Shown: positions 4,801 through 29,025, counted from the stretch's first letter. The stretch is 36,757 nucleotides of DNA from Candidatus Liptonbacteria bacterium (GCA_043801735.1 JAZDLT010000020.1:1-36757); one strand, 5' to 3'. Numbers and translations: made by a program. Notes: a model not told the origin generated them from the sequence alone.

Positions 4801-7800
4801 GGGAAATGGAGGTCTGGGCGCTGGAGGGTTACGGCGCGCGCGCGACCTTGCAGGAAATGCTGACCATCAAGTCCGATGATGTGTTGGGTCGTTCTTCCGC
4901 CTACGAATCGATTATTCGGGGCGAGCCGATTAAGGGCCCCAATATCCCCGCCTCTTTCAATGTTCTGGTGAACGAGCTCAAGGCATTGAGTCTTAATATT
5001 GAGCCCGTATATGATTCGCCCGCCGATCGCAAAGACGACTTTAAGGCGCTACGCATCAGCGTGGCTTCCCCAGACGATATCTTGAAATGGTCTCACGGGG
5101 AGATTCTGAAGCCGGAGACCATCAACTATCGTACCCAACGACCGGAAAAAGACGGGCTATTTTCGGAGCGTATCTTTGGGCCGACCAAGGACTATGAATG
5201 CACCTGCGGCAAATATCGCCGCATCCGTTATAAGGGCGTGATTTGCGACAAATGTGGCGTGGAAGTCACGCGCGCGGTGGTGCGGCGGGAGCGCCTGGGT
5301 CATATTGCCCTAGCCGCGCCGGTCAGCCATATATGGTTTTTCAAAAGTGTTCCGTCCCGTTTGAGCTTGCTTTTAGATGTTTCTTCTGTTCGATTGGAGC
5401 GTGTTATTTATTACGTGGACTACATTGTAACCGTAGTGGACGAAGAGCACCGCAAGGAGGTTCTGGAGGATCTGGATCGGGAATTAAGGGGTAAGCTGAA
5501 AACGGTGGACGAAAAAGACCGTAAGGTGAAAACCGAACTAAACTCGGAAGCCAACCAGTCGCGGGCGACTTTGGAGGCCATGCGTCCCGGTCAGGTTCTG
5601 TCGGAAAACGAATATCTTTCCTTGAGTCGGCGTTTTGGCAGCGTGTTTAAGGCGGGTACCGGCGCGGAGGCGGTGCGGGAGATTTTGGAAAAGATGGATT
5701 TGCGCAAAGAGGTCCACAAGATCGAGAAAGAACTAGAACATTCCAAGGATAAAGAAACGGTCGGGGAAACCAAAATTTTGCGGCGCCTGAAAATGCTGCG
5801 TTCCATGATTAAAAACGGCACGCGCCCGGAGTGGTTGATAATGACCGTTCTACCGGTCTTGCCCCCGGATCTGCGCCCGATGGTAGCCCTCGACGGCGGA
5901 CGCTATGCCACCTCCGATTTGAATGACCTCTATCGCCGGGTTATCAACCGTAACAACCGCCTCAAGAAACTTCTGGAAATAAAAGCGCCGGAAGTCATCG
6001 TTAAAAACGAGAAGCGCATGCTGCAGGAGGCGGTAGACGCCCTGATTGATAATTCCGCCCGCTTCGGCACCCAACAACTTTCCGCCCGGCGCCGCCCACT
6101 CCGTTCTTTGGCGGATATGTTGAAGGGTAAGCAAGGCAGGTTTCGTCAAAACTTACTCGGTAAGCGCGTGGACTATTCCGGCCGCTCCGTCATCGTGGTC
6201 GGGCCCAAGCTTAGTATTGATGAGTGCGGTTTACCCAAGAAAATGGCGCTGGAACTCTTCCGCCCGTTCGTTATTAGTGAAATAATCAAACGCGAATTAG
6301 CGCACAACATCCGCAATGCGAATCGTCTCATAGAACAAGCCACGGATGAAATATGGGCAATCCTGGAAGAGATCACCAAAAATTATCGCGTCCTTTTGAA
6401 TCGTGCTCCGACCCTGCATCGCTTGTCCATCCAGGCCTTCAAGCCGATTTTGGTGGAAGGTCTGGCCATTCAGGTTCCGCCCTTGGTCTGCGCCGCTTTC
6501 AATGCGGACTTTGATGGCGACCAGATGGCAGTGCACATACCGCTTTCGGAGGAGGCCCAACGGGAAGCCAGGGAAATTATGGATGCCGGCCGCAACCTAC
6601 TGAAGCCCGCCACGGGCGAACTAATCACCGCGCCCACCCAGGATTTCGTTTTGGGCACATATTATCTTACTCAAATGTATCCGGAGACCAAGGGCGCGGG
6701 CCGAGCCTTTACCTGCATCAAAGAGGCCCTAATGGCTTACCACTACGAGGCGCTCTCGCTCCATGCCCCAATTCGGGTGGGTGAACATAAAGAGACCACC
6801 CTCGGCCGTCTTATCTTTAACGAAGTTCTAGGGGATACGTTGGAATACGTGAACGAGACCTTGAATAAAAAGAAGTTGGCGCGCTTAATAGAAAGGATAA
6901 TTGTTTCGGCGGGATTGGAAAAAGCCCGGGACATACTCCAGCGGGCAAAGCTTCTGGGTTTTGACATGGCCACCCGGAGCGGCATCACTTGGGCAATGGC
7001 CGATCTTATTATTCCAGCCGCCAAGGCGGGAATTGTGCGCAAGGCGGAAGAAGAAGTGAGCGTTATCCGGGAGCAGTACGATCAGGGTTTCTTGACGGAA
7101 GCCGAACGGCGGGCACGGGTAATTAGCATTTGGGAAAAAGTAAAAAGCGACATCGCCAAACAGGTAACCGGATCCTTGCCCGCGGACAACTCTATTTACC
7201 AAATTATTGATTCCGGTTCGCGCGGTTCTTGGTCTCAGCCGATTCAAATGATGGGCATGAAGGGTTTAGTGGCAAATCCCCGGGGAGAAGTAATCGAATT
7301 ACCTATCAAGTCGTCCTTCAAGGAAGGACTATCTGTGTTGGAATACTTCATCTCTACTCACGGCGCGCGCAAAGGCACGACCGACACCGCTCTTAAAACC
7401 GCCCAGGCCGGATATCTAACCCGCCGTCTGGTAGACGTTTCTCAAGACCTGACTATCAAGGAAGAGGATTGCAGGAGTAAGGACGGTATGGAAATCCTAC
7501 GCAATGACAGTAAAAATCTGGGACAATCTTTTAGTTCTAGAGTGTTTTCACGTACCGCTCTGGAAGATATCCGGGTAGAACGTAAAATTGTCGTCCGCGC
7601 GGGAGAGGCAATAGACCGAGCTACGGCGGATACCATAGACAAATCCGGCCTGGAGAGCGTTAAAGTCCGCTCGCCTTTGAACTGCAAAACCCTTTATGGT
7701 CTTTGCCAAAAGTGCTACGGTTTCGATCTGGGCGACAACAAACCCGTTAAAATCGGTTCCGCGGTCGGGGTGGTGGCTGCCCAATCCATTGGTGAACCGG

Positions 7801-10643: not shown

Positions 10644-10646
10644 ATC

Positions 10647-10668
10647 AAAAACCCCGCAAGGGGTTTTT
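10647..10668 (+). terminator. Rho-independent terminator after the PAP2 gene
   Basis: AAAAACCCC-GCAA-GGGGTTTTT: perfect 9-bp stem with a T run. Confidence 0.8.
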
Positions 10669-10760
10669 GATAAGTATGGTTGGGCGGACTTTGCTATATG
10701 CTTAGAGTCGGGCACCCCGAAGATTGTTTTTTATCGAATCGCCCTTTGCGGGTTTGTGAC

Positions 10761-10769
10761 TGTGGATAA
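10761..10769 (-). promoter_or_regulatory. Perfect DnaA-box 9-mer (TGTGGATAA on the plus strand) upstream of the lexA-methylase promoter
   Basis: Exact reverse complement of TTATCCACA. It ends 9 nt upstream of the predicted -35. Confidence 0.45.
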
Positions 10770-10777
10770 CCAGCCCT

Positions 10778-10805
10778 TTTACACTTTCGATTTATTTTCT
10801 ATAAT
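10778..10805 (+). promoter_or_regulatory. Promoter of the LexA-methyltransferase gene, leaderless geometry
   Basis: TTTACA (10778-10783), 16-nt spacer, TATAAT (10800-10805). Only 6 nt separate the -10 from the ATG at 10812, and there is no Shine-Dalgarno sequence. Confidence 0.5.
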
Positions 10806-10811
10806 ATCGCT

Positions 10812-12242
10812 ATGATAACAAAAAGGCAAAAACAAACCCTGGATTTTATAACCGATTATCAGAAGCGGAGAGGATATGCCCCCTCTCTTGATGAGATACG
10901 CAAGAAATTAAAACTCTCATCTGTTTCAACGGCTCACTTTCATGTCTCTAAGCTGCGCGACTTGGGATTTTTATCAAAAGAGGAAAACAAACCGCGTTCG
11001 ATTGAGGCGTTTGGCCGTGAGACGATGGTACAAATTCCGCTTTTAGGAACTATCGCCGCTGGTCAACCGATAGAGGCGATACAGAACAAAGAAATGATAG
11101 CTGTTCCCAAAAGTAAAATTCCTTCTTCGACGGAGGTGTATGCCCTCCGCGTGGTTGGCAATAGCATGATTGATGAGAATATCAACGACGGAGATGTGGT
11201 TTTGGTGCGCCAACAAGAAACGGCCGAGAATGGGCAAAAAGTTGTGGCTCTTATTGATAACCACGAGGCAACCTTAAAAAAATTCTATAAAGAGAGAGGG
11301 CAGATCCGCCTACAACCTGCGAACAAAAGCATGGAACCAATTATTTTCAGAAACGGACGAGATGTTTCTATACAGGGAATAGTGCTTGATGTCATTCGCG
11401 AAGAAAGGGCTGCGGATATCCAGTTGCCAGAGCCCAGAGGGCAAGAAAAATATAAGGAACTGCCCGTTAATAAAATTATTTGTGGAGATGCGATAGAAGT
11501 AATGAAGAAATTTCCGCCAAATTCAGTTGATATTGTAGTTACCTCTCCACCTTATGATGCCGTTCGTGATTATAAGGGATTTTCCCTTGATTTACATTCG
11601 GCGGGAAAAGAAATATATCGTGTCCTCAAAGATGGTGGAGTAGCTGTTATGGTAATTCAAGATCAGACAAAAAACTTTGGTAAATCGTTAACTTCCTTCC
11701 GTACGATTACAGATTGGTGTGATAGTTTCGGATTCAAGCTTTTTGAGACGGTTATTTATCGCAAGTATGGCGCGGAGGGCGCATGGTGGAATAAACGTTT
11801 CCGCGTAGACCATGAATATATACCAATTTTTCTGAAAGGCGAGAGGCCGCAATATTTCAATAAAGAGCGTCTAAAAATTCCGTCTAAACATGGTGGAAAA
11901 ACAATGACGGGGGGCGGTACTCGGCTTACGAACGGCGTTCGAATAGCAACTCGCTCAATCAAAATAAACCCAATGAAGTGTAGGGGGACGATCTGGGAGT
12001 ATCTTACGGCGGGCGATGGAAGTCGCCTTAAGCACCAGCATCCCGCAACCTTCCCGAATCAGCTCCCGTATGATTTTATTGGTTGTTTTGCGCCAAAAAA
12101 CGGGATAGTGCTCGATCCTTTTGTCGGAAGTGGCACAACGACTGTCGCAGCAAAGAATCTTGGATACAAATATATTGGCATTGATATCGCACCCGAATAT
12201 TGCGAAATAGCAAGGAAAAGAATACAAGAGGAAACAAAATAG
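10812..12242 (+). CDS. LexA repressor (wHTH + S24 peptidase) fused to a beta-class N4/N6 DNA methyltransferase (SPPY, predicted m4C)
   Basis: aa 1-197 form a complete LexA: the wHTH RQKQTLDFITDYQKRRGYAPSLDEIRKKL, cleavage site IAAG (Ala83-Gly84), nucleophile GNSM (Ser118) and general base ATLKK (Lys156). aa ~216-476 form a PF01555-like methylase, with motif IV DIVVTSPPY (nt 11544-11555) preceding HPATFP and motif I LDPFVGSGTT. One ORF, with no stop in the linker of about 20 aa. Confidence 0.85.
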   Translation: MITKRQKQTLDFITDYQKRRGYAPSLDEIRKKLKLSSVSTAHFHVSKLRDLGFLSKEENKPRSIEAFGRETMVQIPLLGTIAAGQPIEAIQNKEMIAVPKSKIPSSTEVYALRVVGNSMIDENINDGDVVLVRQQETAENGQKVVALIDNHEATLKKFYKERGQIRLQPANKSMEPIIFRNGRDVSIQGIVLDVIREERAADIQLPEPRGQEKYKELPVNKIICGDAIEVMKKFPPNSVDIVVTSPPYDAVRDYKGFSLDLHSAGKEIYRVLKDGGVAVMVIQDQTKNFGKSLTSFRTITDWCDSFGFKLFETVIYRKYGAEGAWWNKRFRVDHEYIPIFLKGERPQYFNKERLKIPSKHGGKTMTGGGTRLTNGVRIATRSIKINPMKCRGTIWEYLTAGDGSRLKHQHPATFPNQLPYDFIGCFAPKNGIVLDPFVGSGTTTVAAKNLGYKYIGIDIAPEYCEIARKRIQEETK

Positions 12243-12252
12243 CCCAGAACGG
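12242..12252. repeat. Left copy of the 11-bp direct repeat GCCCAGAACGG
   Basis: Exact copy of 13231-13241. It starts at the last base of the methylase stop codon. Confidence 0.8.
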
Positions 12253-12261
12253 TAAATTAAT

Positions 12262-13200
12262 TTAGGATAATCTATCTGGTGTCTCTAGTGTGTATTGGAT
12301 TACGGCGCCCTCTGTCATTGCTAAAGAAAGGGGCTGCTTATTCCATATCTCTAAAAATTTCATATTACCTCGACTACCTCTGTTCTGGCCATAAATTTCC
12401 TTAGTAAACTTGTGTTGCTTTAAGTTCTCTAAATTCCAGTTTTCTGATTTAAGTTCCCATCCCGTGAGATCACTAATTAAAGATAGGGTTTCTGTTAAAA
12501 CACCCCCATTAAATTTAAAAAGGTCTATATGTCCATAATAAGTCGGATTGATGGACTTCAATTTAGCTATAAAAGAATCTATCTCTTGTATGAGATCTAT
12601 GACAGATATGTTCTTCAGCTTTACCCACCAATCTGCTTCTGCTCCATGGTGCAAATAATCGAACCAATCTAAAACGTTGCCAGTATACTTGAAAAGAATT
12701 TTCCATACGCCGTCCGCAAAAAATATAGGAGCCAATCCTTGTGTCCTTACAGAAATCTTTCCCGGAGAGTAATTCTCGAGAATGTACATTAAAAAATGAA
12801 TGGCACCAAGTGGGTATTTTCTTGCCAACGTACTTCTCTGTCTGTCAAACCCTCTTATGTAATTTGGATTTATGCAGTCAGACATTTTTTTGTGATAGTC
12901 AATCGGAGGGGTATTGAGCATGTGAATATTCATGTGGTGTCCTACGGAGCGTACCCCCTCCCGCAGAATCTCCATATCTAGAAAAATACACTTTCTAGCC
13001 GAAATGCCGGGCACGATTAACAAAGACTTCCCATCATAAAATCCTTTTATCTGCCAATTGAGATATTGGCTCATAAAAAGACCACACAATAAACCATCCA
13101 CGTCTGGACTTAATATGCAATTTTGTCCAGGATCTATTATCCAAGGATATTTTTTGAGTAGGACAGCATAATCAATTGTTAACGAGGAGGGATGTGACAT
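12262..13200 (-). CDS. Hypothetical 312-aa protein; candidate partner (nuclease/effector) of the LexA-methylase
   Basis: Clean ORF, and the most AT-rich gene in the window by my line-by-line counts (roughly mid-30s to low-40s % GC versus about 50-55% nearby). Convergent with the methylase, 19 nt apart. Weak ordered motifs reminiscent of DHH phosphoesterases (SPDVDG, FLDME, GHH). No family is recognised with confidence. Confidence 0.6.
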   Translation of the reverse strand: MSHPSSLTIDYAVLLKKYPWIIDPGQNCILSPDVDGLLCGLFMSQYLNWQIKGFYDGKSLLIVPGISARKCIFLDMEILREGVRSVGHHMNIHMLNTPPIDYHKKMSDCINPNYIRGFDRQRSTLARKYPLGAIHFLMYILENYSPGKISVRTQGLAPIFFADGVWKILFKYTGNVLDWFDYLHHGAEADWWVKLKNISVIDLIQEIDSFIAKLKSINPTYYGHIDLFKFNGGVLTETLSLISDLTGWELKSENWNLENLKQHKFTKEIYGQNRGSRGNMKFLEIWNKQPLSLAMTEGAVIQYTLETPDRLS

Positions 13201-13230
13201 TTATTGACTTAAATAGAATTTATTCATGGT

Positions 13231-13241
13231 GCCCAGAACGG
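13231..13241. repeat. Right copy of the 11-bp direct repeat GCCCAGAACGG
   Basis: Exact copy of 12242-12252. It lies in TGGTGCCCAGAACGGAACC, which loosely resembles the tRNA-Leu 3' end TGCCCAGGGCCGGAATCGAACC at 13437. Confidence 0.8.
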
Positions 13242-13400
13242 AACCTCCTCCTTCACTAAAGCTACGGATGGACTAGGAGCCGGTAGGTTTGTGCCGCGGG
13301 AGGGAGTCCCCTCCAGAGGCGGGCAAGGAACCCTCATGACCTTGCGATCGCGGGATTTTGCCTGTCCGCCAAAGCTTTGGCGTCGGCGGAAGTCCCGTGC

Positions 13401-13418
13401 GCCCGCCTGTCGGCGGGC
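13401..13418. repeat. GC-rich hairpin GCCCGCC-TGTC-GGCGGGC
   Basis: Perfect 7-bp stem, 19 nt downstream of the tRNA-Leu 3' end. Neighbouring palindromes are CGCCAAAGCTTTGGCG (13367-13382) and GGAGGG-AGTC-CCCTCC (13299-13314). Confidence 0.7.
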
Positions 13419-13436
13419 AGGTCTGCCAATAAAATG

Positions 13437-13518
13437 TGCCCAGGGCCGGAATCGAACCGGCATGGGTTTCCCCACACGATTTTGAGTCGTGCGCGTCTAC
13501 CAATTCCGCCACCCGGGC
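13437..13518 (-). tRNA. tRNA-Leu (anticodon CAA), CCA not encoded
   Basis: Cloverleaf folded by hand: acceptor GCCCGGG/CCTGGGC; D arm GCGGAATTGGTAGACGC; anticodon stem CACGA/TCGTG with loop CTCAAAA; long variable arm; T arm GCCGG-TTCGATT-CCGGC; discriminator A. Confidence 0.92.
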
Positions 13519-13591
13519 AGGGTGAGGTATCTTGCTAGTTTTCAACTGATTGTCCGTATCTTTCGATGCGCACGACTGTCGTGCACGCCTG

Positions 13592-13607
13592 CCTGCCGGT
13601 AGGCAGG
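13592..13607. repeat. GC-rich hairpin CCTGCC-GGTA-GGCAGG
   Basis: Perfect 6-bp stem. A related unit, CCTGCCTGCTGGTCGGCATGG, is inserted at 30817-30837. Confidence 0.7.
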
Positions 13608-13766
13608 TCTACCTCCAGCGTCCGGGCATATCAAGTTACCGTCCTATTTAACCCTTTTTTACCCCTGAGATCAAGGTCATTTCTTTGCGTTAGGGCCCAT
13701 TAATTTATACAATTACAGCAATGGTCAGCGTAATCTCTGGACCAGCTCGGGATAATCAATGAACTT

Positions 13767-14567
13767 ATGGCAAGAGTAATAGGCATCTGCAATCAGAAGG
13801 GGGGAGTGGGCAAGACCACCACCGCGGTCAACTTGGGCGCCTATGTCGCGCTGCAGGGTAGGCGCGTGCTTCTGGTGGATTTCGATCCACAAGCAAACGC
13901 AAGCTCCGCCCTGGGTCATGATCCGCGTTCGGACACCCCCAGTGTTTATCACGGCATTTTGGAACAGGGTGAGCCCTGGGAGCTGGTTCGCCCCTCCGCG
14001 CTTTATAACTTTCACTACATTCCCTCCGCGCCGCATCTCGCGGGCGCGTTGGTGGAGTTGGTAAATATTCCCAAAAGAGAAGGACTGTTGCGCCGTTTCC
14101 TGAATCATCTGCGCCATGGTTACGAATATATTTTTATAGATTTGCCGCCCAGCTTGAGTTTACTTACCGTAAACGGGCTTGTGGCAAGCGACGAGATTCT
14201 TATTCCCGTTCAGGCGGAATACTACAGCTTGGAAGGACTGGGACAGTTGCTCGAAACGGTGAATCTTATCCGTGCCAATCTCGGACACAACTTGGAAGTG
14301 GCGGGCGCGCTTCTTACCATGTATGACGGCAGGGAGCAGCTGAATCGGGAGGTTGCCCACGATCTTCGCGCTCATTTTCCATACCCGGTTTTCGAAACCG
14401 AGATTCCACGCAGCATTGCGTTGGCGGAGGCGCCCAGTTTCAACAAGCCGGTGGTTTTACATCGCCCGGATTCCGCCGGCGCGGAGGCATACCACCGCTT
14501 GGCGCTGGAAATTACCCGCCAGAAAAAACCTACAGGCGAGAAAGAGGCGGGCAACTTTAATGTATAA
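13767..14567 (+). CDS. parA: Chromosome partitioning ATPase ParA/Soj
   Basis: Deviant Walker A KGGVGKTTTAVNLG and the DFDPQ motif. Followed by parB with an 8-nt overlap. Confidence 0.93.
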   Translation: MARVIGICNQKGGVGKTTTAVNLGAYVALQGRRVLLVDFDPQANASSALGHDPRSDTPSVYHGILEQGEPWELVRPSALYNFHYIPSAPHLAGALVELVNIPKREGLLRRFLNHLRHGYEYIFIDLPPSLSLLTVNGLVASDEILIPVQAEYYSLEGLGQLLETVNLIRANLGHNLEVAGALLTMYDGREQLNREVAHDLRAHFPYPVFETEIPRSIALAEAPSFNKPVVLHRPDSAGAEAYHRLALEITRQKKPTGEKEAGNFNV

Positions 14568-17488: not shown

Positions 17489-20400
17489 ATGACCAAAAAA
17501 CTGGTTATCGCTCTTTTGGGCGTAATGCTGGTTGTGCCCACAACCTCCTTTGCCCAAAGCGCAACCGACCTACAGTCGCAAATAAATGCCATTTTGCAGC
17601 AAATCGCGGCTCTGCAAAAGATGGTCATTAATCAGCAGGGGTCCTCCTCCGGTCAATCCGGTCAGACAACCGTTCCCGCTCCGGTCCAGGCCCAAACTCA
17701 AGTCAACTATGGGCAGGTTGTTTCCGCCTGCCGGGAACTTCGCAACACCTTGCGCGCGGGCACTAAGGGCGAAGACGTATCTTATCTTCAAACTCTTCTT
17801 CAAAAAGAGGGATTTGCCATCAGCCAAGACGAAATCTCCGGCCAGGAGTATGGCGAATCCACCGCCTCCGCGGTGACCGGTCTTCAGGAAAAGTATCGCA
17901 GTGAAATTCTTGCTCCGGTAGGGCTCAAGTACGGCAGTGGCTTGGTGGGTGCGGGCACCCGCAAGAAGCTAAATGCGCTTTATGGTTGCCTGCAGCCGGT
18001 AATCCAACCACCCCAACCGCCAATCGAGGTGGGAGCTCCGATTATCCATAGTGTCTCTGGCCCGACAGTTCTTAAGTCCGGAGAAGTAGGCACATGGACG
18101 ATAAAAGCCAGCGACCCCAACAACGGAACATTGCGCTACCGGGTTATCTGGGGAGATGAAGCGTCTGGAATTTCTGGAATGATGACAACTCCCCTGGAAA
18201 ACTTCGTCCAAACCACAACTTTTACCCACACCTACTATAACCCCGGTAGTGTTTATGAGCCGGTATTTTACGTTACAAACGATTCCGGCCGGATTACCAA
18301 GAAAAGCTTAACCGTGAAAATAATTGACTTGTCTGGCCAGGCTCCGGTCGTCTCCGGCGTTTCCGGTCCAACTACCCTCAAGGTGGGTGAAGTAGGAACT
18401 TGGAAGGTGGGTGTAAACGCCAACTATAACGACTACCTTAGCTACTCGGTTATTTGGGGAGACGAGCTGGCGCAGACGTCAAGTGACGGCAGTTCCGCGG
18501 CTCGTTCCATTAGCCAGTCCGCCACCATGACTCATGCCTATCAGCAGGCGGGAACGTATTATCCGATATTTTATGTTACCAACCAGAACGGGCAATCTGC
18601 CAAAACGAGTATAAGTGTACAGGTGGGAGGAACGGTAACTTCTACGAAGCCGGACATCATAATTTCTGACGTTGTTTGCGACCCGGCGAATCCTAAGGCA
18701 CACGAGTGGATCACCTGCAGCGTAACAGTTGCCAATAACAGTTCCGTGGATATTACAAAATCGTTTGATGTCAATATTCAGGGAATCGCGGTAACGATAA
18801 GCGCTCCCTTGAATGCCTGGGAGAAGAAGACGGTAAAAGCTCCTTCGCCTTTTGGTCTTACTATTTTGGGAAATAACACTCTTAACTTTCCGGCAGATAT
18901 TTGGAACTCCGTTGATGAAAGCAACGAGGATAACAACGTATTTACCACGACCATAAACGTGGGGGATGCGGTCGTCGTATCTGAACAGGTCAAATGTGTA
19001 TTCGATGGCGCGACTAGCGAACAAAAATGCTACACGGCCACCAATAGCTCCGACAAATACTATAATCTTGGTTGTTCCGGCGTCGGCGCCTGCGTAGTTG
19101 ATCTCAAGGGCAACAAGGGAGACCAGATTACCTGGAAGAGCTCCTGTGGTGGTTATGCCTATACCACTATGGATGGGCAAAATGAGTATGCCAAGTTCTC
19201 CTGCGGGACAACTCAACCTTCGGGTTCCATTTCGATTTATCCCGCAACTATCTCACTGGGAGTAGGAGAAAACGTTAAGATTAAGGCCTACTACAGCCCT
19301 GTTTGTCCCCCGGGGGCAGTTTGCACAATGGCCATCCGAGAGATTGAGCCCAAGTGGACCGTTGACAACACAAGTGTGGCCACCTTAATCAGCACTTCCT
19401 GTCAATCTCAACCCGGTTCGACTTGTGATGCCATAATTCCAACAACTCAAATAAATGGCATGGCCGCGGGGAAAACAACCCTACGTGCAACCTGGCAAGG
19501 TGATTCTGGTGCTGTTGCGCTAACCGCCACCGCTCCCGTGACAGTAAATGTGTCTCCGCCCCCAATACCAACGGTATCCGAACAGGTTAAGTGCCTCTTT
19601 GATGGCACTACGAGTGAACAAAAATGCTACACGGCCACCAACAGCTCCGACAAATACTATAATCTTGGCTGTTCCGGCGTCGGCGCCTGCGTGGCGGACG
19701 TCAAGGGCAACAAGGGAGATCAGATTACTTGGAAGAGTTCCTGTGGTGGATATGCCTATACCACCATGGATGGACAGAACGAGTATGCCAAGTTCTCCTG
19801 TAGTGGAACCGTCCCGCCCCCAATACCAACCCCAATACCAACGGTATCCGAGCAGGTTAAATGTTTGTTTGATGGAGATTCAACCAGTAAGCAAAGTTGT
19901 TACATAGCCAGTCCGGCGGGCAGTAACTATGCAGCGATGGGTTGCGATGGCATCGGCGCCTGCGTAGTTGATCTCAAGGGTAATAAGGGAGATCAGGTTA
20001 CTTGGAAGAGCTCTTGTGGTGGATATGCCTATACCACCATGGATGGTCAGAACGAGTATGCCAAGTTCTCCTGTGGGACGACTCAACTGACTTTAAGCGT
20101 GTCTCGAAACAGCTTCAGTCCGGGGGGCAATATTTATCCGGGCGCCAATGGAGCAGAGTTGTTCCGCATAGATATCTCGGCAAAGGGTCAGAGCGCTACA
20201 ATAAAACAACTAAATTTGGAATTAGCCGGAATTCTCGACATGAAGGGAGTGTCTAACATCAAGGCATATGTAGATGGCGTCACGGTCGGCACTCTTTCCG
20301 ATCTGACCAATACCTTCTCCCACTACTATACCGGTAACATTAATACGTCCGGTCTGACTATCCCGGCGGGTAGTACTAAGGTTGTAAGTATCCGGGGCGA

Positions 20401-28445: not shown

Positions 28446-28941
28446 TCGCGAATAACGCAAATCAAATAGGTAATAACGCAAATATGGAGAGGGATGTAAT
28501 CACCAATATTGCGAGTATGGATTCAAGAAAAGAAATAGTGCTGCCAGAATTAAGCTTCGGTGTCGTCGGAGCCGCATTTGACGTGTTTAATAATCTCGGT
28601 TGGGGATTTCCTGAAAGAAATTACCAGAATGCGTTGGCGGAAGAACTGGCCACCCGTAAGATAAATTTCAAACGGGAAGTTTATATCCCCTTAATTTATA
28701 AAACCTCCAATATCGGTAGATACTTTGCGGACTTCATTATTGAGGATAGGGCGCTCCTAGAATTAAAAGTTGTCTCTAAGTTTGGTTATGTTCATGCCAA
28801 GCAGGTGTTGGCGTATCTCTGTGCGGCCAGATTAAGGTTGGGCATTCTGGTATACTTTACAAAGGATGGGGTTAAGTATCGTCGTGTTTTAAATCCCCAT
28901 TCGCATTATTTGCAATAAATTTGCGATATTAGCGATTACTC
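28440..28941 (+). mobile_element. Compact TIR-bounded element carrying a single GxxExxY ORF
   Basis: The outer 10-mers GAGTAATCGC (28440-28449) and GCGATTACTC (28932-28941) are exact inverted repeats. Inside them are two 12-mers per end: AATAACGCAAAT at 28451 and 28472, versus ATTCGCATTATT at 28899 and ATTTGCGATATT at 28917. Confidence 0.6.
28484..28918 (+). CDS. GxxExxY family protein (PD-(D/E)XK-like fold family)
   Basis: Signature GFPERNY (G-x-x-E-x-x-Y) at the expected position, followed by YIPLIYK...ADFIIEDRALLELK, which is typical of the family. Confidence 0.8.
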   Translation: MERDVITNIASMDSRKEIVLPELSFGVVGAAFDVFNNLGWGFPERNYQNALAEELATRKINFKREVYIPLIYKTSNIGRYFADFIIEDRALLELKVVSKFGYVHAKQVLAYLCAARLRLGILVYFTKDGVKYRRVLNPHSHYLQ

Positions 28942-28944
28942 TAT
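28894..28944 (+). repeat. 51-bp direct repeat, copy 1
   Basis: TCCCCATTCGCATTATTTGCAATAAATTTGCGATATTAGCGATTACTCTAT is identical to 28975-29025. Confidence 0.9.
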
Positions 28945-28974
28945 TATGTTTTCAAGTCAAAATAGTCGTGTATA

Positions 28975-29025
28975 TCCCCATTCGCATTATTTGCAATAAA
29001 TTTGCGATATTAGCGATTACTCTAT
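28975..29025 (+). repeat. 51-bp direct repeat, copy 2 (ends within the pilC start codon)
   Basis: Perfect copy of 28894-28944, 30 nt downstream of it. The pilC ATG is at 29024. Confidence 0.9.

Follow-up and report, generated by a model that had tools for sequence, protein, structure and literature searches.

Introduction

Type II restriction-modification (R-M) systems that combine a controller (C) protein with beta-class N4/N6 methylases, such as PvuII, BamHI and Esp1396I (PMC3874152), are among the closest described counterparts of the locus analysed here, which lies in a 36,757-bp contig from a Candidatus Liptonbacteria metagenome-assembled genome (MAG). The whole contig, hereafter the window, was analysed around two genes, one for a 312-amino-acid (aa) protein (R) and one for a fusion of LexA with a DNA methylase (M). 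As in the C-protein systems, R and M are separate genes in convergent or tandem order, many loci of the family have an HTH_3 controller gene directly upstream of R, the distribution across phyla is patchy, the genes form a low-GC islet and a short palindromic word is avoided. Unlike in those systems, R belongs to no restriction family of Pfam, NCBIfam or PADLOC, the window has no controller, and a complete LexA forms part of the methylase.

Restriction enzymes are well catalogued, and few catalytic folds have been described for them. One precedent for an enzyme outside these folds is R.PabI, from a restriction enzyme family of novel fold that was found by genome comparison (PMC1874622). R resembles R.PabI in being a partner recognised by its R-M gene context and mobility and in being unlike known nuclease folds, but it is modelled as Rossmann-like rather than half-pipe, and PabI is biochemically characterised whereas the R family is known here from sequence and model. 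The N4-methylcytosine (m4C) system of D. radiodurans was considered as a relative and set aside, as its GIY-YIG enzyme is unrelated. A literature search on DHH-type restriction enzymes, LexA-methylase fusions and the word AGNCT found nothing relevant. We argue in the following that R and M are an R-M pair gained as a single unit, in which the 312-aa protein acts as restriction partner, a reading we regard as likely, and that R is the probable restriction subunit of a widespread and unannotated Type II R-M family.

R is consistently paired with a methylase

The product of R is 100% identical to NCBI protein V1856_01110 and has no match at E<=1 in Pfam, NCBIfam, PADLOC or PHROG; sequence comparison with the PDB, by phmmer and with the A1 family profile, gave spurious antibody matches only. 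The original prediction had called it an orphan, a label that has to be dropped: 321 homologues at E<=1e-3 came from a word-indexed search, and 593 cluster representatives, 377 of them below 1e-10, from an exhaustive profile search. Every homologue that bears a name is a 'hypothetical protein', and none is functionally annotated. Scanning of species-representative genomes yielded 80 loci with an R homologue, the hosts including Patescibacteria, Woese- and Pacearchaeota (DPANN), Methanobrevibacter and other methanogens, Planctomycetota, Bacteroidota, Ignavibacteria, Elusimicrobia and Chlorobiaceae (Chlorobi), among others, while a tblastn search against annotated plasmids and phages gave no match to R.

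The partnership of R with the LexA-methylase, which had been proposed from the layout of the two genes, was supported by co-occurrence. In all 85 loci compared, a methylase 53-91% identical to the window methyltransferase (MTase) domain lies within 150 bp of R (tblastn), convergent with it in 72 and upstream on the same strand in the remaining 13, and no methylase-free context was met among them; the methylase bears a LexA part in 30. The convergent arrangement in the window, with 19 nucleotides (nt) between the two stop codons, is as had been described. Moreover, an open reading frame (ORF) of 55-200 aa ends at the R start in 39 of the 75 loci with enough upstream sequence. By eye, about 33-35 of these small ORFs are HTH_3-like (Cro/C1-type), and of ten that were run against Pfam seven matched HTH_3 and three were AbrB/MazE-like or winged-helix. 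Helix-turn-helix (HTH) regulators of the HTH_3 type are a class of R-M controller proteins (PMC3874152). No such gene stands upstream of R in the window, where 13201-13435 contains tRNA debris only. Natural fusions point in the same direction: P0203 (623 aa) joins an N6_N4 methylase to R, and in P0178 an HTH_3 domain is fused to the N-terminus of an R family protein.

Partners have also been exchanged, since methylases about 90% identical to each other are found with R proteins that are 66% (L003) or 37-38% (L031, L044, L056) identical to R of the window. DNA similarity extends from 10760 to the methylase stop for L044, L031 and L056, and from 11447 through R for L003, with a nucleotide identity to every relative of 67-79%. 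No recombination breakpoint was found inside the methylase when L003 was compared with L044, L056 and L031, identity being flat along the gene. Judged from the loci compared, R and M genes move as a pair across bacterial and archaeal phyla.

Through ParA, 48-76% identical to the window copy, we collected 80 syntenic loci, nine of which retain the full order rpsF/ssb-rpsR-PAP2, spacer, tRNA-Leu(caa) on the (-) strand and parA, followed by parB-relA where the contig reaches. In six relatives (L112, L118, L130, L119, L115, L114) the site is empty, the spacer between PAP2 and tRNA-Leu being 130-400 bp long with neither M nor R, against 2793 bp in the window, where it holds both genes. Because the syntenic empty sites lack both, M and R are one inserted unit, a low-GC islet of about 2.6 kb (about 10672-13245) between the PAP2 gene and tRNA-Leu(CAA). 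R has a GC content of 38.1% against 50.5% for the window, and the lowest-GC stretch of 939 nt, at 12286-13224, overlaps it, in agreement with the original prediction that this is the most AT-rich stretch; that the patch would consist of R alone did not hold, as GC is also low in the methylase (43.3%, and 40% at third codon positions, GC3) and in its upstream spacer (42.9%), compared with 49-55% (GC3 55-61%) in the flanking genes. DNA similarity to other loci with a LexA-MTase starts at about 10760. Hosts spread across phyla, a GC content of 38-43% against 51% and the empty sites in the six relatives are all signs of horizontal mobility; no integrase or other mobility gene is present at the window locus. 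At the same site, two relatives (L117, L122) instead have a large gene that looks like a peptidoglycan transpeptidase/carboxypeptidase.

The modelled N-terminal domain weakly resembles DHH phosphoesterases

The AlphaFold2 model of R, based on an alignment of 68 sequences, reached a predicted local distance difference test score (pLDDT) of 92.9 and a predicted template modelling score (pTM) of 0.92. It comprises an N-terminal alpha/beta domain with strands at residues 27-30, 50-55, 59-62, 71-74 and 84-86, followed by a helical middle region and a C-terminus that is small and rich in beta structure. When the full model was compared with the PDB by Foldseek, the best match was RecJ-Cdc45 of Methanothermobacter (7bhi; E 2e-3), then S. 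aureus RecJ, GAN, PggH, RecJ2 and P. furiosus RecJ. Against BFVD the full model matched phage RecJ and DHH phosphohydrolases (E 3e-3, probability 0.75), and residues 1-200 taken alone (pLDDT 89.3) had as their 11 best PDB matches members of the DHH family without exception (probability up to 0.92, template modelling (TM) score 0.32-0.41). DhhP and the non-catalytic Cdc45 were also among the closest structures, and a second tier consisted of other Rossmann-like folds (NAD synthetase/PP-loop, SIS domains). Among the 50 matches listed for each search, none was a PD-(D/E)XK, HNH, GIY-YIG, PLD or half-pipe protein.

Within the family, residues D33, D35, G53, D75, H89, K128, P130, N175 and W179 are invariant down to 21% identity, and G36, S85, G87, N113, Y129, H135 and D163 nearly so. 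The succession of strand-DxDG-helix, strand-D and strand-G(H/Q/N)H runs collinear with that of DHH motifs I-III; motif IV has no clear counterpart, the nearly invariant D163 lying inside a helix. Compared with the DHH/DHHA1 superfamily (RecJ, RecJ-Cdc45/GAN, NrnA, DhhP), which is the only consistent structural match, R shares the collinear DxD, D and xHH at strand ends and has a size similar to NrnA. It differs in lacking a profile match, in its motif III, in the absence of a GGGH (DHHA1) motif from residues 230-312 of the alignment, and in an N-domain TM score of 0.38-0.41 only; moreover, the DHH members known to date work as exonucleases or nucleotide phosphodiesterases rather than as site-specific endonucleases. 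No RecJ or NrnA gene was found in 1.5 Mb of collected loci. A DHH-like catalytic centre in R is, on the strength of the model, a tentative proposal that we place just short of an even chance, and DHH likeness is at present the best structural lead rather than an established assignment.

Avoidance of AGNCT suggests a target

Restriction pressure classically shows as the avoidance of a palindromic word, and we hence take AGNCT as the predicted recognition site. With expectations from a third-order Markov model and all 1024 5-mers ranked by depletion, the first four places in the window are taken by the AGNCT words, with 9 occurrences against 78.5 expected (observed/expected ratio, o/e, 0.11; z = -7.8). 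All four central bases are depleted alike, and AGCT itself is not depleted. The depletion weakens with distance from the window methylase: o/e is 0.24 (70 against 286.7) in 17 loci with a methylase at least 72% identical, which come from Patescibacteria, a Flavobacteriaceae MAG, Pacearchaeota and an uncultured archaeon, 0.64 (760 against 1182.8; AGSCT 0.44, AGWCT 0.82) in 64 loci with more distant methylases, and 0.88 (1447 against 1646.7) in the 80 syntenic ParA loci. Methylase identity and AGNCT depletion are correlated accordingly (Spearman rho -0.33, p = 0.004). Among 16 XYNY'X' patterns, AGNCT ranks first in depletion in 41% of R-M loci and in 21% of controls, and most close syntenic relatives that lack the islet show no such depletion.

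We consider it somewhat more likely than not, from these word counts, that AGNCT is the specificity of the R-M pair. Provided that no existing enzyme shares it, this specificity would be new and useful, and a literature search that did not extend to REBASE turned up no paper in which AGNCT is given as the site of an R-M system. Palindromes of 4 and 6 nt were also considered as targets and rejected, the avoidance of GATC and CTAG being generic and uninformative. Two further words are depleted in the window, CTSAG (CTCAG and CTGAG, 5 each against 29.5 expected, both strands) and GGWCC (52 against 90), which hints at further restriction systems elsewhere in the genome.

The LexA-methylase and its upstream region

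Three parts make up the 476-aa product of M: a LexA winged HTH at residues 2-62, a self-cleaving S24 peptidase at 76-191 and, at 239-468, a DNA methyltransferase of the beta-class N6_N4 type. The product scores 183 bits with TIGR00498 lexA (cut-off 111) and matches PF01726, PF00717 and PF01555 (1.4e-39), and AAG, GNSM and LKKF, corresponding to the S24 cleavage site and the Ser/Lys dyad, are visible in the translation. Since its motif IV is TSPPY and N4-cytosine MTases are among its PDB relatives, m4C is predicted as the protective mark, and M is probably an m4C methylase. The start of M is preceded by a promoter close to consensus and, over its -35 and -10 elements, by a putative direct-repeat operator. 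This operator is conserved in front of LexA-MTase genes in about 20 loci, and its half-sites change together from locus to locus (TTTCGGT/TTTCGGT, TGTTCGC/TGTTCGG), the pattern to be expected if the fused LexA winged helix binds there. The window contains one exact copy of this operator, which is not in front of R, and no Gram-positive LexA box (GAAC-N4-GTTC) was found near M or R. Just upstream of the promoter, a DnaA box conserved at these genes suggests a link of methylase expression to DnaA.

M.SsoII, M.MspI and M.EcoRII are examples of methyltransferases that repress themselves through an N-terminal HTH. The window methylase is comparable in having an N-terminal DNA-binding domain and a conserved operator over its own -35/-10, but it carries a full LexA including S24, and its operator is a direct repeat, not a palindrome. 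With a full LexA and a self-cleaving S24, repression would therefore be sensitive to DNA damage. Methyltransferases that control their own promoter through an N-terminal HTH are covered where PMC3874152 deals with antitoxins as regulators.

tRNA remnants lie beside the variable insertion site

The variable site lies on the 3' flank of an intact tRNA-Leu(CAA), and two tRNA-derived pieces separate this gene from R. The larger, at 13313-13371, is a decayed tRNA-Leu; blastn aligns 33 nt of it with tRNA-Leu of L098, L095 and L090 at 94% identity, and its local alignment score is 75 against 21.4 +/- 3.7 for shuffles. This piece is only weakly like the resident tRNA and nearer to tRNA-Leu of relatives, and neither ARAGORN nor Rfam called it. 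The smaller is a scrap 26 nt upstream of the R start codon, TGGTGCCCAGAACGGAACC (13227-13245), whose reverse complement ends in CTGGGCACCA and is like a tRNA-Leu 3' end, relatives' tRNA-Leu genes ending in ...GGGCACCA. An Rfam E-value scan of 13100-13800 returned tRNA-Leu only, the 200-bp GC-rich spacer matching no known RNA, and the far side of the islet, next to the methylase, showed no tRNA-derived repeat.

Among the 85 loci, a tRNA lies within 700 bp in 8, which is about background by a rough estimate, and in 7 of those 8 its 3' end faces the module, which is suggestive only; in L011 and L056, R starts 25-30 nt after a tRNA 3' end. The tRNA resemblance pointed out in the original prediction is real, and the site looks like a tRNA-linked hot spot. 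In common with tRNA-linked islets it has low-GC foreign genes on a tRNA 3' flank, decayed tRNA 3' copies and varied cargo in relatives; unlike them it has no integrase and no tRNA-derived repeat at the methylase edge, and the remnants lie between the tRNA and the islet.

Several observations concern the same tRNA flank in relatives. In L118 (~7475-7700) and L130 (~1340-1560) a second copy of the tRNA-Leu 3' end, together with some 20-60 nt of its flank, lies about 200 bp beyond the gene on the downstream side, and the piece between the two copies is conserved and tRNA-like, with a CTCAAA stretch resembling an anticodon loop. A GC-rich, hairpin-forming repeat of 28 nt, 82% identical between its copies, stands on either side of tRNA-Leu in the window (13400-13427 and 13586-13613), with similar ones in L123 and L129. 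In L091 (2472-4383) a different R-M-like pair, a 427-aa SPPY methylase and a 208-aa ORF, occupies the tRNA-Leu(caa) 3' flank.

Proposed mechanism and alternative explanations

We hypothesise that the methylase (SPPY, probably m4C) protects AGNCT sites and that the 312-aa protein, probably as a dimer on the palindromic word, would cut unmethylated sites with a metal centre formed by D33, D35, D75 and H89 at the C-terminal strand ends of its Rossmann-like, DHH/RecJ-resembling N-domain. The LexA winged helix of the methylase would repress its own promoter through the operator at 10785-10802; since the LexA part is complete, DNA breaks could lead to RecA-stimulated self-cleavage by S24, lifting repression and raising methylase levels. 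Such an SOS feedback on the methylase is conceivable, although we judge it somewhat less likely to exist than to be absent, and it would make the fusion a possible self-correcting circuit in which self-restriction triggers the SOS signal and in turn more methylase. R itself could be transcribed by read-through from tRNA-Leu, as it is on the same strand, an arrangement seen also in L011 and L056. Taken in full, the proposal is of a first restriction endonuclease on a DHH/RecJ-like domain, specific for AGNCT and, in Patescibacteria and DPANN archaea, paired with a self-cleaving LexA-methylase on which DNA breaks feed back; we offer it with more doubt than confidence. If true, a RecJ-like metal centre in restriction enzymes would widen the repertoire of catalytic folds, and defence annotation of Patescibacteria and DPANN genomes would be missing a common R-M type with hundreds of members in bacteria and archaea that is invisible to Pfam, NCBIfam and PADLOC. 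The interest of the pair rests on the unusual architecture of its nuclease, and is contingent on biochemistry.

A number of results speak against parts of this proposal. The similarity to DHH proteins is weak (Foldseek E 2e-3 to 7e-3, TM 0.23-0.41), the A1 family profile found no DHH protein in the PDB, Pfam DHH (PF01368) had no match at E<=1, and hhalign against an NrnA profile gave a probability of 0.2% over an 11-residue motif-I stretch only, a weak negative given the narrow NrnA alignment (>=63% identity). In motif III, G87-(H/Q/N)88-H89, a Gly replaces the Asp, and both H88 and E77 are variable. The hint of DHH/RecJ motifs in the original prediction has thus fared unevenly: the top Foldseek matches are all RecJ/DHH and D33, D35, D75 and H89 are placed as motifs I-III, but profile matches are missing and the Asp of motif III is lost; likewise, the suggested search for nuclease folds brought DHH to the top, but none of PD-(D/E)XK, HNH and GIY-YIG. 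For AGNCT, 19 of the 74 R-M loci in which sites are numerous enough to judge reach an o/e of 0.77 or more, and depletion is seen in some controls too, so the assignment is statistical and other systems could contribute. The promoter scan found no consensus promoter for R, and the activity of this copy of M is uncertain because its 3' end is shortened, its ORF being 7-8 codons shorter than those of relatives.

Two alternatives concern what R does. It could be a DHH-type (oligo)nucleotide phosphodiesterase (a nanoRNase, a cyclic-dinucleotide or a pAp phosphatase-like enzyme) or a Cdc45-like scaffold rather than an endonuclease, with the methylase as an orphan regulator. NrnA-like PggH, DhhP and the non-catalytic Cdc45 are indeed among the closest structures, the canonical DHH Asp is absent, and we know of no DHH protein that is a sequence-specific double-strand endonuclease. 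We find this improbable all the same, given that three features of the family, its strict association with a single methylase lineage (85 of 85 loci), the controller genes and the M-R fusions, are signatures of R-M systems, that palindromic-word avoidance tracking methylase similarity implies selection at the level of DNA, that invariant acidic and His residues argue for catalysis, and that the alignment lacks the DHHA1 GGGH motif. The other alternative leaves R a restriction enzyme, but of a new fold or a very divergent known one, its DHH likeness being generic Rossmann-like convergence. TM scores below 0.5 with E-values of about 1e-2 to 1e-3, the second tier of NAD synthetase/PP-loop and SIS domains and the negative profile comparison all fit, and we take this as a serious possibility, though one we lean against, as DHH proteins lead three independent searches and beta1-DxDG-helix, beta-D and beta-G(H/Q/N)H are collinear with DHH motifs I-III.

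A third explanation, put forward in the original prediction, concerns how R arrived: R alone would be a cassette integrated at a tRNA-derived att-like site, with the 11-mer GCCCAGAACGG duplicated on both sides. The coordinates given for this repeat are correct, and its two copies, the only ones in the window even with 1 mismatch allowed, are direct, intergenic and enclose exactly one gene; the right copy does lie in a tRNA-3'-end-like scrap beside a decayed tRNA-Leu, and the swapped R partners and the R genes beginning close to a tRNA 3' end in L011 and L056 could be read in the same way. The repeat, on the other hand, is unremarkable. Outside its two truly repetitive regions the window has about 20 isolated exact direct pairs of at least 11 nt spaced 50-1200 bp apart, against 13.5 +/- 4.7 in first-order Markov simulations, and the 11-mer occurs at least twice at no more than 1 mismatch in 20 of 100 dinucleotide-preserving shuffles. 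Moreover, the left copy, which starts at the G of the methylase TAG, is native to M. Methylase tails of relatives end in a conserved ...KLF*, and the L056 methylase, with an MTase domain 90% identical, ends in GAA AAA CAG AAC GGG TTA TTT TAA (EKQNGLF*; DNA ...CAGAACGGG...), whereas the window reads ACA AAA TAG CCC AGA ACG GTA AAT TAA, with IAQNGKLI* in the +1 frame. As 8 of the 11 nt are homologous to the L056 coding tail, this part of the left 11-mer is, by this comparison, what remains of the methylase reading frame beyond a premature stop or frameshift. None of the related loci has the 11-mer at these positions or junctions. This absence, together with the origin of the left copy, points to independent origins, and the match between methylase tail and tRNA scrap is best read as chance. 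The convergent M/R layout is ancestral (72 of 85 loci), the swaps of R partner, at 67-79% nucleotide identity, are too old to have left an exact 11-bp scar, no mobility gene is present, and the empty sites lack both genes. We regard a single-gene cassette as highly improbable, and return to the gain of R and M together. When such windows are scanned, exact 11-bp repeats bracketing a gene are to be expected by chance in 37 kb.

Features of the locus and other observations

Coordinates of the features are collected in Table 1.

Table 1. Features at and around the islet, in window coordinates, with the evidence for each.
Feature	Position	Strand	Evidence
Terminator hairpin of the PAP2-like gene, left islet edge	10644..10671	(+)	Inverted repeat I6, GC
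DnaA-box consensus TTATCCACA (TTATCCACA / TGTGGATAA)	10761..10769	(-)	Kept upstream of LexA-MTase genes, ~20 loci
Methylase promoter TTTACA-16-TATAAT, 11/12, 6 nt before ATG	10778..10805	(+)	Promoter scan
Putative direct-repeat operator TTTCGAT-TTAT-TTTCTAT over promoter -35/-10	10785-10802		Conservation in ~20 loci
M gene, 476-aa LexA-S24-N6_N4 fusion	10812..12242	(+)	Pfam, NCBIfam, PDB relatives, tail comparison
Left 11-mer, vestige of the methylase 3' coding tail in the 19-nt M/R spacer	12242..12252	(+)	Sequence, tail comparison with L056
R gene, probable restriction endonuclease with N-terminal DHH-like alpha/beta domain	12262..13200	(-)	ORF, homologues, methylase adjacency, model, Foldseek
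tRNA 3'-end-like scrap GGTTCCGTTCTGGGCACCA (T-loop start, acceptor 3' strand, CCA)	13227..13245	(-)	Sequence, weak local match to tRNA-Leu 3' end
Right 11-mer, within the tRNA-3'-end-like scrap	13231..13241	(+)	Sequence
Decayed tRNA-Leu(CAA), D arm to acceptor 3' strand, anticodon-stem deletions	13313..13371	(-)	blastn, local alignment
Intact tRNA-Leu(CAA), 3' flank = variable insertion site	13436..13518	(-)	tRNA calls, synteny

In the methylase tail (12225-12264) the stop before the conserved ...KLF* results either from a genuine mutation, frameshift or nonsense, or from a fault in the assembly. Elsewhere in the window, an exact 52-nt direct repeat, ATCCCCATTCGCATTATTTGCAATAAATTTGCGATATTAGCGATTACTCTAT, occurs at 28893-28944 and 28974-29025, spaced 81 nt apart, in the second-lowest-GC patch, and the region 19019-20063 contains long internal direct repeats at offsets of 273, 597 and 870 nt, which probably represent a repeated domain in a coding region.

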